DNA from: an uncultured Christensenella sp.
GTDB taxonomy: Bacteria; Bacillota; Clostridia; Christensenellales; UBA3700
DNA length: 64,000 nucleotides
Direction of reading: 5' to 3'
Assembly (NCBI GenBank): GCA_964478025.1
Contig: CAYZGK010000004.1
Span: 8,273-72,272 of the forward strand
Made by a program: the position numbers and the translations under genes. This document shows positions 11,432-16,578 of this stretch, piece after piece. The notes under the pieces are model-generated. The model saw only the letters and a list, made by a program, of their open reading frames with translations, was not told where the DNA came from and made no database searches. Positions within the stretch are counted from its first letter, which is position 1. Each line of letters opens with the position of its first letter.

Positions 11432-11459
11432 CACAACCGGACAATTTTGTCCGGTTGTG
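11432..11459. promoter_or_regulatory. Palindrome copy 1 (candidate XRE operator)
   Basis: CACAACCGGACAA-TT-TTGTCCGGTTGTG, perfect 13-bp arms. Confidence 0.7.
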
Positions 11460-11543: not shown

Positions 11544-12047
11544 ATGAAAAAGATAGGAGCAGGTGGAAAGCTTCAGAATTATGATTCAAAAGGTAGATAT
11601 TGTAAAAATAACTATTTTGATTTTACGCCACCTGCATTTACTAAAAAAGAAATAAGAAGGCGTAAAGAAGAAAAACGTCGGCAAGAACTTTATGAAAAAG
11701 CAAAATGCAGTGATGATGCTTATATATTTGATGTATATTTAGCTTTAGAAAAAGCCATTCCTGGTGTTGTTATTGGTGTAAATGAAAAATTGTTAGATGA
11801 AAATATAGGTAAACCTCGTGAATTTGACATAATTACTAAAAAATGCATAATAGAAGTAAAGTCTAAAGCTGTTAAATGTGAAAGTCAATTACTAGCTCAA
11901 CTTAGATATACTAATTTACATAAGATAAAACATTTCTTGTATTCTCCAACTATCACTAGAGTGGCAAAATATGAATATGAGAAAAATGGAATTGATGTAA
12001 GTAAAACATTAGATGAATTAGTAAGAAAAGTAAAGGAGATGCAATAA
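11544..12047 (+). CDS. Putative PD-(D/E)xK nuclease toxin, allele T1
   Basis: REFDIITKKCIIEVKS (D95, E104, K106), downstream Q helix; RBS AAGGAGG; stop overlaps next ATG (TAATG). Confidence 0.7.
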   Translation: MKKIGAGGKLQNYDSKGRYCKNNYFDFTPPAFTKKEIRRRKEEKRRQELYEKAKCSDDAYIFDVYLALEKAIPGVVIGVNEKLLDENIGKPREFDIITKKCIIEVKSKAVKCESQLLAQLRYTNLHKIKHFLYSPTITRVAKYEYEKNGIDVSKTLDELVRKVKEMQ

Positions 12048-12418
12048 TGAGAGATATATTTTTTGTTACAAAAGAACCAATGGTTTTAGAAGATTGCTTT
12101 GAAGCTATAAAGAAAGTTTATAAATCTGCCGATACTGGTATTGGTGTTATATGTTTAGATAAGTCAGCTCCAAAATCAGCATATATGTGGTTTCCATCAT
12201 TAAAAAAATACGAACCAGGTGAGGTTTGGGAAGAGGATGATTTGAAAGATGTGCCTGATGATTATAATTATTTTACAACATTAAATTATCATCTAACGTG
12301 TGTGACTAAAAATTTTGTTAGGGCTTTACAGCCTTTGTATCCAGATATGTTAATACAAGATGATGATTCTAAGGTATATACTATCGACGAATATTTAAAT
12401 TGTAAGTTTGATCATTAA
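12047..12418 (+). CDS. Putative cognate immunity protein, allele I1
   Basis: Small acidic protein translationally coupled to the nuclease; paralog of four other copies. Confidence 0.65.
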   Translation: MRDIFFVTKEPMVLEDCFEAIKKVYKSADTGIGVICLDKSAPKSAYMWFPSLKKYEPGEVWEEDDLKDVPDDYNYFTTLNYHLTCVTKNFVRALQPLYPDMLIQDDDSKVYTIDEYLNCKFDH

Positions 12419-12464
12419 ATAATGATTAATAAATGAAATAATAAATTACTAGAGGAATTATTTT

Positions 12465-12490
12465 ACAACCGGACAATCTTGTCCGGTTGT
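12465..12490. promoter_or_regulatory. Palindrome copy 2
   Basis: ACAACCGGACAA-TC-TTGTCCGGTTGT. Confidence 0.7.
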
Positions 12491-12575
12491 GTTCTTGTTT
12501 ATGCCCTTCTTAAAGAGTGTCTTATATATCAAAATGTAGGTATACAAAAATCTCACTTTATAAGGAGGGAATATT

Positions 12576-13082
12576 ATGAAAAAGATAGGAGCAGGTGGAA
12601 AGCTTCAGAATTATGATTCAAAAGGTAGATATTGTAAAAATAACTATTTTGATTTTACGCCACCTGCATTTACTAAAAAAGAAATAAGAAGACGTAAAGA
12701 AGAAAAACGTCGGCAAGAACTTTATGAAAAAGCAAAAAATAGTGATGATGCTTATGTGTTTGATGTGTACTTAACTTTAGAAAAAGCAATGCCGGGTGTT
12801 GTTATAGGCGTAAATGAATATAGATTAGATGAAAATATAGGTAAACCCCGTGAATTTGACATAATCACTAAAAAATGCATAATAGAAGTAAAGTCAGAAA
12901 AGGCTGCAAAGAAAGAAAAACAATTATTAGCACAATTAAAATATGCCAATTCGCATAAGTTAAAACATTTTTTATATTCGCCTACTATTACTAGAGCAAG
13001 GAAGTATGAATATGAGAAAAATGGAATTAATGTAAGTAAAACATTAGATGAGTTAATTAGAAAACTAAAGGAGATGCAATAA
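12576..13082 (+). CDS. Putative PD-(D/E)xK nuclease toxin, allele T2
   Basis: Same N-terminal 54 aa and catalytic motif as T1; C-terminal half diverged. Confidence 0.7.
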   Translation: MKKIGAGGKLQNYDSKGRYCKNNYFDFTPPAFTKKEIRRRKEEKRRQELYEKAKNSDDAYVFDVYLTLEKAMPGVVIGVNEYRLDENIGKPREFDIITKKCIIEVKSEKAAKKEKQLLAQLKYANSHKLKHFLYSPTITRARKYEYEKNGINVSKTLDELIRKLKEMQ

Positions 13083-13453
13083 TGAGAGATATATTTTTTG
13101 TTACAAAAGAACCAATGGTTTTAGAAGATTGCTTTGAAGCTATAAAGAAAGTTTATAAATCTGCCGATACGGGTATTGGTGTTATATGTTTAGATAAGTC
13201 AGCTCCGAAATCAGCATATATGTGGTTTCCATCATTAAAAAAATATGACCCAGATGAGTTTTGGGAAGAGGATGAATTAGAAAATATACCAGATGATTAT
13301 AATTATTTTACAAATTTAGAATATCATTTATCTTGTGTGTCTAAAAATTTTGTTAAGGCATTACAGCCTCTATATCCAGATATGCTTATACAAGATGATG
13401 ATTATGTAGTATATACCATCGAAGAATATTTAAATTGTAAGTTTGATCATTAA
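13082..13453 (+). CDS. Putative immunity protein, allele I2
   Basis: First 55 aa identical to I1, rest diverged; TAATG coupling. Confidence 0.65.
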   Translation: MRDIFFVTKEPMVLEDCFEAIKKVYKSADTGIGVICLDKSAPKSAYMWFPSLKKYDPDEFWEEDELENIPDDYNYFTNLEYHLSCVSKNFVKALQPLYPDMLIQDDDYVVYTIEEYLNCKFDH

Positions 13454-13499
13454 ATAATGATTAATAAATGAAATAATAAATTACTAGAGGAATTATTTT

Positions 13500-13525
13500 A
13501 CAACCGGACAATCTTGTCCGGTTGT
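13500..13525. promoter_or_regulatory. Palindrome copy 3
   Basis: Identical to copy 2. Confidence 0.7.
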
Positions 13526-13610
13526 GTTCTTGTTTATGCCCTTCTTAAAGAGTGTCTTATATATCAAAATGTAGGTATACAAAAATCTCACTTTATAAGG
13601 AGGGAATATT

Positions 13611-14117
13611 ATGAAAAAGATAGGAGCAGGTGGAAAGCTTCAGAATTATGATTCAAAAGGTAGATATTGTAAAAATAACTATTTTGATTTTACGCCACCT
13701 GCATTTACTAAAAAAGAAATAAGAAGACGTAAAGAAGAAAAACGTCGGCAAGAACTTTATGAAAAAGCAAAAAATAGTGATGATGCTTATGTATTTGATG
13801 TGTATTTAGCTTTAGAAAAAGCAATGCCTGGTGTGGTTATAGGTGTAAATGAATATTTATACGATGAAAATATTAAAGATAAAAGGGAGTTTGACATAAT
13901 TACTAAAAAATGCATAATAGAAGTAAAGTCAGGCGATGTAGTAAAGAGGGAGAAACAATTTTTGGCACAGCTAAAGTATACAAAGTTTCATGGGGTACAA
14001 TATTTTATTTTTGCTCCGGATTTAAATAGAATTAGAACTTATCAATATACCAAAGATGGATTTAACATAAGTAAAACGTTAGATGAATTAATAAGAAAAG
14101 TAAAGGAGATACAATAA
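13611..14117 (+). CDS. Putative PD-(D/E)xK nuclease toxin, allele T3
   Basis: Same N-terminus and motif; C-terminal half identical to T4. Confidence 0.7.
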   Translation: MKKIGAGGKLQNYDSKGRYCKNNYFDFTPPAFTKKEIRRRKEEKRRQELYEKAKNSDDAYVFDVYLALEKAMPGVVIGVNEYLYDENIKDKREFDIITKKCIIEVKSGDVVKREKQFLAQLKYTKFHGVQYFIFAPDLNRIRTYQYTKDGFNISKTLDELIRKVKEIQ

Positions 14118-14485
14118 TGAGAGATATATTTTTTGTTACAAAAGAACCAATGATTTTAGATGATTGTTATATAGAAATAAAGAAAGTTTATAAAAAAAGC
14201 GAAAAAAGCAATTGTAAAATTAGTTTATATGGAGCTCCAAAATCAGCATATATGTGGTTTCCTTCATTAAAAAAATATGACCCAAGTGAATATTGGGGTG
14301 AAGATGAATTGGAAAATATACCTGATGATTATAATTATTTTACAAATCTTGAATATCATCTAACGTGTGTATCTAAAAATTTTGTTAGGGCTTTACAACC
14401 ATTGTATCCAGATATGCTAATACAAGATGATTATCTAAAAGTATATACAATTGAAGAATATTTAAGTTGTAAGTTTGACCATTAG
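14117..14485 (+). CDS. Putative immunity protein, allele I3
   Basis: Paralog of I1/I2; TAATG coupling. Confidence 0.65.
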   Translation: MRDIFFVTKEPMILDDCYIEIKKVYKKSEKSNCKISLYGAPKSAYMWFPSLKKYDPSEYWGEDELENIPDDYNYFTNLEYHLTCVSKNFVRALQPLYPDMLIQDDYLKVYTIEEYLSCKFDH

Positions 14486-14528
14486 AACTATGAATAATGA
14501 ATAAAATAAAGACTTTCTAAAGAAAAAA

Positions 14529-15176
14529 CTACTTTTTTTGATTTTTTATTTTATTTTTAAATTTTGTTTTATATTCATTTTCGTATTCTTTAGGATCCTC
14601 TCCATTGTAAACTAATAGTTTATTAAGTCTTTCTATTGATGGAAATAGGGAGTCTTCATAATTTCTGAAATTTTGAATTAATTTATCAAAATCTTTTATG
14701 CTAATTGTTGGATCTTCGTCTCTTATATCTACACAATAATTTTTATTTTCAAAATTATCATTAAGTCTATTTAAGTATATTTGTGTTTCCTTATCTAAAC
14801 ACTCAAAAATATATTCTTCACCATTGGGTAAATTTGGATTTTTGATTTTTTTAGGAATAATAACAAGTGAAAACATAAGTCTATTTAGTCTTTTAAATGA
14901 TGCTTCCCAGGTATATAGGTTGTCATCAGATGTCTCTTTATTAAGAATTAGATAATCAAGTGAAACATTATATAAATCAGCTAGAGCAACTAGAAAATCG
15001 ATTTTTGGGGAACATTTTCCTTGTTCATATCGTCTAATAGTTCTTTCGTCAATTATTAAATAATGTTTATTTTGTAATTTTTCTATAACATTATCTATTG
15101 TATATTGTTTTTCTTTTCTTAATATTCTAAGTCGTTTACCTACATTTTTTCTAAAGTTTTCATCTGAAATAAACAT
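14529..15176 (-). CDS. XRE/Cro-C1 HTH transcriptional regulator with C-terminal extension
   Basis: VGKRLRILRKEKQYT...TIRRYEQGKCSPKIDFLVALADLYNVSLDYL; RBS AGGTAGGTG. Confidence 0.92.
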   Translation of the reverse strand: MFISDENFRKNVGKRLRILRKEKQYTIDNVIEKLQNKHYLIIDERTIRRYEQGKCSPKIDFLVALADLYNVSLDYLILNKETSDDNLYTWEASFKRLNRLMFSLVIIPKKIKNPNLPNGEEYIFECLDKETQIYLNRLNDNFENKNYCVDIRDEDPTISIKDFDKLIQNFRNYEDSLFPSIERLNKLLVYNGEDPKEYENEYKTKFKNKIKNQKK

Positions 15177-15197
15177 TTTTCACCTACCTTTATATTG

Positions 15198-15246
15198 ATT
15201 TTACCAAATCGGACATTTTTGTCCAGTAGTGTATGAGAAAATGTCC
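15198..15246 (-). promoter_or_regulatory. Candidate XRE promoter overlapped by degenerate palindrome
   Basis: Minus strand TGGACA(15225-15220)-16 nt-TAAAAT(15203-15198) with extended TG; GGACA-TTTT-TGTCC at 15211-15224; extra TGTCC 22 bp away. Confidence 0.65.
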
Positions 15247-15311
15247 TTCTTTTGGTTCATAACGAAGAACATAATATTTATGACAAAAATTTATTTTAAG
15301 GAGAAAAGGCT

Positions 15312-15818
15312 ATGAAAAAGATAGGAGCAGGTGGAAAACTTCAGAATTATGATTCAAAAGGTAGATACTGTAAAAATAACTATTTTGATTTTACGCCACC
15401 TGCATTTACTAAAAAAGAAATAAGAAGACGTAAAGAATAAAAGCGACGACAAGAACTTTATGAAAAAGCAGAAAAAAGTGATGATGCTTATGTGTTTGAT
15501 GTATATTTAGCTTTAGAAAAAGCTATGCCCGGTGTAGTTATAGGAGTAAATGAGTATTTGTTTGATGCAAACATAGGAGCAAATAGGGAGTTTGACATAA
15601 TTACTAAAAAATGCATAATAGAAGTAAAGTCAGGCGATGTAGTAAAGAGGGAGAAACAATTTTTGGCACAGCTAAAGTATACAAAGTTTCATGGGGTACA
15701 ATATTTTATTTTTGCTCCGGATTTAAATAGAATTAGAACTTATCAATATACCAAAGATGGATTTAACATAAGTAAAACGTTAGATGAATTAATAAGAAAA
15801 GTAAAGGAGATACAATAA
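15312..15818 (+). pseudogene. Nuclease toxin allele T4, nonsense mutation
   Basis: ATG 15312 homologous to T1-T3; GAA>TAA at 15438-15440; rest of frame intact. Confidence 0.88.
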
Positions 15819-16185
15819 TGAGAGATATATTTTTTGTTACAAAAGAACCAATGAATATAGATGATTGCTATAAGGAAATAAGTAAAGTTTATAAAAAGGC
15901 AAAAAAATATGATGATGAAATTAGTATTTTAGGTGCTCCAAAGTCTGCTTTTATGTGGTTTCCATCATTAAAAAATATGATCCTAGTGAATATTGGGGTG
16001 AGGATCAGTTAAAAGATATACCAAAAGATTATAATTATTTTACAACCTTAAATTATCATTTAACGTGTGTAACTAAAAACTTTGTTAGAGCTTTACAAAC
16101 ATTGTATCCAGATATGCTGATACAAGATGCTTATTTGAAAGTATATAAAATTGAAGAATATTTAAATTGTAAGTTTGACCACTAA
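15818..16185 (+). pseudogene. Immunity allele I4, -1 frameshift in A-tract
   Basis: A6 at 15970-15975 where the other four paralogs have A7; both halves match the family. Confidence 0.88.
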
Positions 16186-16209
16186 TAATGTGAGTAAAGG
16201 AAAAATAAA

Positions 16210-16578
16210 ATGAGAGATATATTTTTTGTTACAAAAGAACCAATGAATGTAGAGGATTGCTATAAGGAAATAAGTAAAATTTATAAAAAAGCAGAAAAAC
16301 TAAATGAACAAATATCTTTAGATAATTATCCTAAATCGGCCCTTATGTGGTTTCCATCATTAAAAAAATATGATCCAAGTGAATATTGGGGTGAAGATGA
16401 ATTAGAAAACATACCGGAAGATTATAATTATTTTACAAATCTTGAGTATCATTTAACTTGTGTATCTAAAAATTTTGTTAGGGCATTACAACCATTGTAT
16501 CCAGATATGCTAATACAAGATGCTTATTTGAAAGTATATACAATTGAAGAATATTTAAATTGTAAATTTGACCATTAA
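16210..16578 (+). CDS. Orphan immunity allele I5
   Basis: Full-length paralog with no upstream nuclease gene. Confidence 0.7.
   Translation: MRDIFFVTKEPMNVEDCYKEISKIYKKAEKLNEQISLDNYPKSALMWFPSLKKYDPSEYWGEDELENIPEDYNYFTNLEYHLTCVSKNFVRALQPLYPDMLIQDAYLKVYTIEEYLNCKFDH

Follow-up and report, generated by a model that had tools for sequence, protein, structure and literature searches.

Block-wise recombination in a tandem array of putative toxin-immunity cassettes from an uncultured Christensenella

In the colicin E DNases with their Im proteins, and in pairs of the ParD-ParE type, specificity is set by a few variable surface patches that lie beside conserved anchors; the patches that confer specificity on the colicin DNases, which belong to the HNH enzymes, have been mapped by structures and assays. 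Polymorphic toxin systems (Rhs, CdiA) with orphan toxin-tip/immunity cassettes were reportedly described by Zhang, Aravind and colleagues in 2012. Here we analyse a 64,000-nucleotide stretch of DNA from an uncultured Christensenella sp. (contig CAYZGK010000004.1 of assembly GCA_964478025.1; the whole stretch is referred to as the window), which carries at positions 11544-16578 a tandem array of genes for a small basic protein, T, and a small acidic protein, I. The array comprises three intact T-I cassettes, a divergent XRE regulator, a dead fourth cassette and an orphan I gene, I5 (Table 1), with intact T proteins of 167-168 amino acids (aa) and intact I proteins of 122-123 aa. The evidence supports the view that T and I behave as toxin-immunity pairs, in which I presumably binds and blocks T.

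The closest described phenomenon is recombination between tandem immunity paralogues of type VII secretion systems (T7SS), namely esaG and tipC, whose evolution by homologous recombination uses conserved blocks of sequence (Garrett et al., 2022, PMC9484751). The array resembles these paralogues in forming strings of non-identical immunity genes in Firmicutes, in having short conserved blocks as recombination anchors, in a copy number that differs by strain, and in statistical evidence of intergenic recombination. In contrast to esaG and tipC, whole toxin-immunity cassettes are repeated and shuffled here rather than immunity genes alone, the toxin is a stand-alone 167-aa protein and not the tip of a T7SS toxin of the LXG or EsaD type, the protein families are different, and no T7SS marker was found in the present genome.

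Similarities to the Rhs/CdiA systems include a tip domain that occurs on Rhs-repeat and T7SS-signal proteins, an immunity gene immediately after the toxin gene, orphan immunity genes, and the exchange of tips by recombination at a conserved junction. Unlike those systems, T has, in place of any large trafficking or repeat domain, an N-terminus of 55 aa that is highly basic and contains one YD-repeat-like motif (QNYDxxGRY), no full-length 'main' gene is present in the genome, and the conserved unit includes a divergent XRE regulator. As in the colicin E DNase-Im pairs, a small acidic inhibitor is combined with a basic (here predicted) nuclease; there is, however, no sequence or fold relationship, and the patches of T and I are deduced from covariation only. 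The CdiA-CT/CdiI pairs (PDB 4G6V and relatives) likewise have a toxin with the PD-(D/E)xK-type fold predicted for T, but no CdiA-CT chain is among the top 50 matches of the T model, and CdiB/CdiA delivery is absent. Recombination among tandem toxin/immunity paralogues is, as a general phenomenon, already known; what is new here lies in the families to which the proteins belong, in a small toxin that stands alone and has a basic arm at its N-terminus, in its pairing with an XRE regulator, and in sub-genic shuffling in both genes.

We favour, with a probability of roughly 0.62, the reading that the locus is a tandem array of T-I modules reshuffled in blocks by recombination, in which a C-terminal block of the toxin (B, aa 108-153) and two patches of the immunity protein (b, aa 54-71, and e, aa 104-114) would form the specificity contact. 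This reading builds on the observed anatomy of the array, on observed recombination and on observed associations between blocks. An ancestral unit, consisting of a divergent XRE regulator followed by T and by an I translationally coupled to it, has multiplied in this species, and homologous recombination and gene conversion reshuffle the cassettes at short anchors of conserved sequence, namely the initial ~60 codons of T, REFDIITKKCIIEVKS, the junction at which T ends and I starts, and PKSAYMWFPSLKKY. Each cassette is therefore a mosaic of old haplotype blocks. Across the population, B stays matched to e and b, with the A, a, c and d patches reassorting almost freely.

T and I are rare: 5.8 billion proteins, when searched, yielded 25 clusters of T and 12 of I, and a metagenome scan added 2 loci only. 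Through identity look-ups the locus was recovered from many further samples, again flanked by the pyrophosphokinase gene on one side and the MBG/VirD4 genes on the other, with arrays of 2-4 T and 3-6 I genes. I start and T stop share one base (TAATG) in every cassette of the window, and an I gene with the same 1-nt stop/start overlap follows T in 26 of the 26 T copies that have readable downstream DNA; at least 11 I copies follow another I and are therefore orphans. The allele set assembled from these sources comprises 18 distinct T-I pairs, which fall into 13 types once cassettes with at most 6 residue differences are merged.

Recombination and dN/dS tests on more alleles, put forward in a preliminary description of the locus, gave the following results. 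Recombination is clearly indicated among 17 distinct cassette DNAs, both by the pairwise homoplasy index (PHI, 0.326 versus 0.541±0.008 after permutation, p≤0.001) and by failure of the four-gamete condition at 48% of informative site pairs. The ratio of non-synonymous to synonymous substitution rates (dN/dS) is 0.20-0.59 in the variable patches versus 0.04-0.11 in the conserved blocks, and in no block does it exceed 1. With dS at 0.5-0.85, the variable blocks are old, fast-evolving haplotypes.

Associations between blocks were measured over the 13 types as bias-corrected mutual information (excess normalised mutual information, NMI); the uncollapsed version with 18 pairs inflates associations. 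The strongest coupling across the two genes is that of B with patch e (excess NMI +0.29, z 6.8, p=0.003), which was absent from the preliminary description. This value nearly equals the association within B (+0.33) despite a separation of about 440 nt. By class, B1 occurs with e1 in 4/4 cases, B2 with e2 in 4/4, and B3 with e3 or e4 in 9/9. B is further associated with b (+0.15, p=0.007), and less clearly with a (+0.10, p=0.053), whereas c (-0.03) and d (+0.07) give non-significant values. For patch A, the association with a reaches +0.12 (p=0.027, before correction for 8 comparisons), and values with any other block range from -0.06 to +0.07 (not significant). One pair, L38_1, has the A, a, b, c and d patches of cassette 3 (W_3), with B and e both of type 1. 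We infer that B together with b and e would be the specificity-determining contact, and that the A hairpin would be a minor contributor at most.

A number of points weigh against this reading. The proposed contact draws solely on covariation, shared ancestry can produce such block associations without selection, and there are just 13 effectively distinct types, mostly from one study's metagenomes. L38_1 itself joins a B1-type toxin to a b3-type patch, and a truncated pair, L37_1, joins a B3-like toxin end to b1/e1-type immunity. The dN/dS ratio, as noted, stays below 1 throughout. On the protein side, every fold and family match of T falls below curated thresholds, and remote Rhs-linked homologues show EVT or QVK instead of EVK, hence the EVK-type motif is not universal across the wider T domain family. 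Finally, T has no recognisable export signal or signal peptide, and its own genome has no Rhs and no WXG100 match above cut-off.

A rival reading is a purely neutral mosaic, in which recombination at conserved anchors shuffles the blocks, the associations are leftover ancestry of a few founder cassettes and no patch sets specificity. The pervasive recombination, which has its documented counterpart in the conserved blocks of esaG and tipC, the sampling of 13 types from few samples, the dN/dS values and the old lineages indicated by dS all agree with such a mosaic. We nevertheless consider it unlikely, given that B-e nearly reaches the strength of the association within B, that c and d, which lie between the two, show no association with B, that in L38_1 two separate tracts (B and e) must have switched together, and that dN/dS of the patches is 3-10 times that of their flanks.

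Within the window, the preliminary description had reported an alternating pattern of sharing among the cassettes, and the alignment agrees with each of its elements. T1 and T2 share LDENIGKP in patch A (aa 84-91), where T3 has YDENIKDK and T4 FDANIGAN; in block B the split is reversed, with 0 differences between T3 and T4 over aa 92-168 and 11 positions at which T1 and T2 differ within aa 108-153. I1 and I2 are identical over aa 1-54, with I3, I4 and I5 each unique in aa 13-41 (patch a), and patch b reads DPSEYWGED in I3, I4 and I5, EPGEVWEED in I1 and DPDEFWEED in I2. The attribution of this mosaic to patchy gene conversion or recombination was likewise borne out, by the PHI test and by significant identical tracts: cassettes 3 and 4 share 270 nt at 100% identity across 111 polymorphic sites (permutation p≤0.0002), and an identical stretch in cassettes 1 and 2 runs from T166 to I30 (p=0.0004).

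The remaining two sharings are of another kind. Patch A in cassettes 1 and 2, and patch b in cassettes 3, 4 and 5, reach merely 80-93% DNA identity and represent ordinary clade-level likeness; two of the four sharings are recent exchanges. The alternation then reflects two old clades ({1,2} and {3,4,5}) overlaid by two recent conversion tracts, one of which homogenised B in cassettes 3 and 4 and the other patch a in cassettes 1 and 2. Two conversion tracts suffice, without selection, and the proposal that alternation in itself signals co-evolving patches is not sustained. The chance probability of a complementary same/different pattern, for four segments and two comparisons, is roughly 1/16 to 1/8, and the window pattern alone is therefore not significant.

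A mosaic of this kind could also be produced by short-read assembly across near-identical repeats. The 270-nt identical tract of cassettes 3 and 4 exceeds usual k-mer sizes, and cassette 3 has no full-length twin in the collected set (best 91.6%). An artefact is very improbable all the same, as full-length counterparts of cassettes 1, 2, 4 and I5, at 98.9-99.7% DNA identity, are present in assemblies made independently from other samples and with independent assemblers, and the A3-a3 combination recurs in L38_1.

The preliminary description had further proposed two independent co-evolving interfaces, A-a and B-b, reassorted as matched pairs by gene conversion. Its B-b half stands in the association reported above; its A-a half is weak and broken by natural swaps, and as a whole we find the model quite improbable. 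It can draw on the fact that A is associated with a though not with the intervening blocks (B -0.00, Bend -0.03, Ct -0.06). Toxins with an A of the IK[DE]K type occur with one a type only (W_3, L38_1), and those with an A of the ...G[KR]L type only with another (L23_3, L26_1, L26_2), in both cases across different B types. In the structural models described below, A lies at the tip of a β hairpin and a contains another, and a β-augmentation contact between them is conceivable. Such a contact occurs in the CdiA-CT/CdiI complex of EC869.

Set against this are the natural swaps, in which two A types are found with unrelated a patches. YRLDENIGKP toxins carry either an a1-type patch (W_2, L23_2, L28_1) or an unrelated a (L27_1, L31_2), YRLDENIGRD toxins likewise carry unrelated a patches (L35_1 versus L23_1), and the same is seen again in the distant relatives P0012 and P0013. 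Moreover, the A-a association fails correction for the 8 comparisons, and a single conversion tract that replaces B, as seen in cassettes 3 and 4, leaves A and a linked as the recipient backbone without any selection. The coupling of B to e, in turn, is closer than its coupling to b. A combinatorial code, in which a minor module A-a and a major module B-b+e are reassorted by gene conversion at fixed anchors, is distinctly unlikely; if true, it would generate new toxin-immunity specificities faster than point mutation, with sub-genic recombination building new protein-protein specificities.

The T protein is basic (isoelectric point, pI, 9.5-9.7). Residues D95, E104, K106, Q115 and Q119 are invariant among 23 T sequences, and E69 is nearly so. 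An AlphaFold2 model (pLDDT 85) has the αβββαβ core of the PD-(D/E)xK superfamily (helix 59-71, strands 76-85, 90-98 and 101-105, helix 113-125, strand 129-133), with the acidic residue on β2 (D95) and the (D/E)xK on β3 (E104-x-K106) in place. Patch A forms the tip of the β1-β2 hairpin of this model, and block B takes in all residues that follow the catalytic lysine. In Foldseek, PD-(D/E)xK enzymes account for every one of the top matches (EndoMS/NucS, PvuRts1I, VC1899, Can2), which are weak; the best is EndoMS (E=0.011, probability 0.97, TM 0.34). Sub-threshold Pfam matches are to UPF0102/YraN in 16 of the 23 members (best E=0.0096, below cut-off) and, weakly, to Tox-REase-7 in two (E=0.047); no significant match was found in Pfam, NCBIfam, PHROGs or PADLOC, and a sequence search of the PDB gave no match.

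A profile of T retrieved 308 relatives among 1.84 billion representative proteins. Over positions 53-168 the profile matches the C-terminal tips of proteins of 400-690 aa with RHS repeats (P0129, P0168, P0172) or a T7SS_signal domain (P0151, P0185). The C-terminal domain of T, of about 115 aa, is thus a polymorphic-toxin tip domain, with a predicted PD-(D/E)xK (restriction-endonuclease-like) fold, and T would probably act as a nuclease. The N-terminal 55 aa, an arm with a net charge of +10, have no family match and are almost invariant among the paralogues (11544-11708 in T1). This arm is confined to the small-protein family and never found on the Rhs/T7SS relatives; within it, a GAGG-x2-QNYDxxGR[YF] motif is conserved down to relatives of 40% identity, and its QNYDxxGRY portion resembles a single Rhs YD repeat.

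The I protein is acidic (pI 4.3-4.9), with a net charge of -7 to -9 in patch b. In its model (pLDDT 90), which has an alpha/beta fold, patch a comprises helix 1 and a β hairpin, patch b is a long acidic loop, and patch e is a β-turn near the C-terminus. The best structural matches are SirA and, weakly, a CdiI, that of B. pseudomallei 1026b (4g6v_B; TM 0.47/0.53, E 0.6, below significance). I has no significant match in Pfam, NCBIfam, PHROGs or PADLOC and no helix-turn-helix (HTH), and a PDB sequence search came back empty. A type II toxin-antitoxin system is defined by a DNA-binding, autoregulating antitoxin; as I lacks an HTH or any other family match, regulation would fall to the separate divergent XRE protein and not to I. 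In one other strain, the whole array (T-I, T-I-I; L031) has no XRE gene, and the regulator is therefore dispensable for keeping the cassettes.

At nine distant loci the unit is conserved as XRE(-)/T/I, with XRE divergently upstream of T and housekeeping genes around it, and the I homologues that follow T are 23-34% identical. Two distant toxins with about 50% identity to T1, P0012 and P0013, are identical to one another through aa 107 except for E47D and then diverge completely, and their immunity proteins show no relationship, starting right at the N-terminus. L021 again combines the B type of P0013 with the immunity type of P0013, but has another A. In this distant lineage B and I travel as one unit, with A free. 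The crossover falls cleanly at the IIEVK anchor (L039:1372-2246 and L044:474-1111). Duplications are also seen among the distant loci, as T-I-I in L015 (6510-7359) and T-I-T in L022 (645-1305), and one contig of a sheep-colon metagenome-assembled genome (MAG; L012/L020) has two modules about 9 kb apart. Directly downstream of a further distant T-I module is a gene for a 909-aa TIR-TPR protein (L018:7225-9951), which may indicate a defence-island context.

In keeping with polymorphic toxins, the toxin domain occurs elsewhere as a C-terminal tip, the immunity gene is paired downstream, and strains are polymorphic and carry orphans; neither an N-terminal trafficking or secretion domain nor a linked export apparatus was found. 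Polymorphism, orphan immunity genes and the kinship with Rhs/T7SS tips favour inter-cellular antagonism, and T would accordingly be delivered between cells rather than act inside its producer. The alternative, that the cassettes are intracellular, XRE-regulated toxin-antitoxin or abortive-infection systems whose orphan I genes are anti-addiction copies, is a real possibility but the less probable one. It would fit with the conserved XRE(-)/T/I unit, set among housekeeping genes and with no secretion genes near it at the nine distant loci, with the lack of a signal peptide on T and of Rhs or T7SS markers in the genome, and with the presence of a VirD4 homologue in only one of eight other T-bearing genomes. 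It sits poorly with strain polymorphism at one locus, intact strings of orphan immunity genes and kinship to Rhs/T7SS tips, which are hallmarks of inter-cellular antagonism, and with the lack of any PADLOC match. This alternative bears on delivery only and is compatible with the patch analysis.

Downstream of the array, at 16765-38371, is a cluster resembling a type IV secretion system (T4SS), flanked by housekeeping genes. It encodes an MBG-domain protein, a VirD4-type coupling protein, a 2473-aa surface protein with a signal peptide and a C-terminal transmembrane segment, a T4SS pilin, a VirB4-like ATPase and a 1662-aa protein without a family; no relaxase or integrase was seen in the window. 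The cluster may be a conjugation remnant or serve protein or DNA export. Delivery of T through the adjacent VirD4/pilin/VirB4 genes was considered and set aside as unsupported, since no T4SS genes occur within 6 kb of T at the distant loci and seven of the eight other T-bearing genomes lack a VirD4 homologue, though MAG incompleteness limits this negative; the adjacency is probably coincidental. A 'main' Rhs or T7SS toxin gene was also considered as recombination partner of the cassettes, and none was found in the genome; for a phage or plasmid origin, tblastn of both collections gave no match.

If B with b and e is indeed the specificity interface, the array would offer a compact natural series on how new specificities originate by block exchange. 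The resource consists of proteins as short as 167 aa and 122 aa, no fewer than 13 pairs shuffled in nature, and orphan immunity genes, and it adds an unmodelled toxin domain (without a Pfam model) and an unmodelled immunity family from uncultured gut Clostridia.

Table 1. Coordinates of the array and its features, numbered from the first nucleotide of the window.
Feature	Position	Strand	Remarks
Terminator-like hairpin	11432..11459	+	12-bp stem then T-run; ahead of cassette 1; contains GGACA-N4-TGTCC palindrome
Further copies of terminator-like hairpin	12464-12491 and 13499-13526		Ahead of cassettes 2 and 3
T1, basic putative toxin	11544..12047	+	167 aa, pI 9.5; PD-(D/E)xK-like domain
T1 patch A	11787-11816	+	
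T1 block B	about 11865-11999	+	
I1, acidic putative immunity protein	12047..12418	+	123 aa, pI 4.6; start overlaps T1 stop (TAATG)
I1 patch a	12083-12169	+	
I1 patch b	12206-12259	+	
I1 patch e	12356-12388	+	
T2	12576..13082	+	168 aa; 89% identity to T1
I2	13082..13453	+	123 aa; aa 1-54 same as I1
DNA tract identical between cassettes 2 and 1	about 13074-13170	+	Position in cassette 2
T3	13611..14117	+	168 aa
Gene-conversion tract	13884..14153	+	270 nt, T aa 92 to I aa 13; 100% identity to 15585-15854 (cassette 4)
I3	14117..14485	+	122 aa
XRE-family HTH regulator	14529..15176	-	215 aa; divergent from T4
T4 pseudogene	15312..15818	+	In-frame TAA at codon 43 (15438-15440); GAA in T1-T3
I4 pseudogene	15818..16185	+	A7-to-A6 frameshift near 15965-15975
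I5, orphan immunity gene	16210..16578	+	Intact; no toxin

In cassette 4, T and I are inactivated together; because of the nonsense codon in T4 and the frameshift in I4, pair 4 is dead in this genome. An intact version of the T4 allele is present in L032 and L033, and I5 matches the orphan at the end of the arrays of other strains with 99.5-99.7% identity. Upstream of the array are LRR and EamA genes and a gene for thiamine pyrophosphokinase, and the T4SS-like cluster lies downstream of it. The GGACA-N4-TGTCC palindrome forms the top of the 12-bp-stem hairpins before cassettes 1-3, and a shorter copy is found at 15211-15224, in the divergent promoter region of XRE and T4; the motif has 4 matches versus 0.38 expected by chance.

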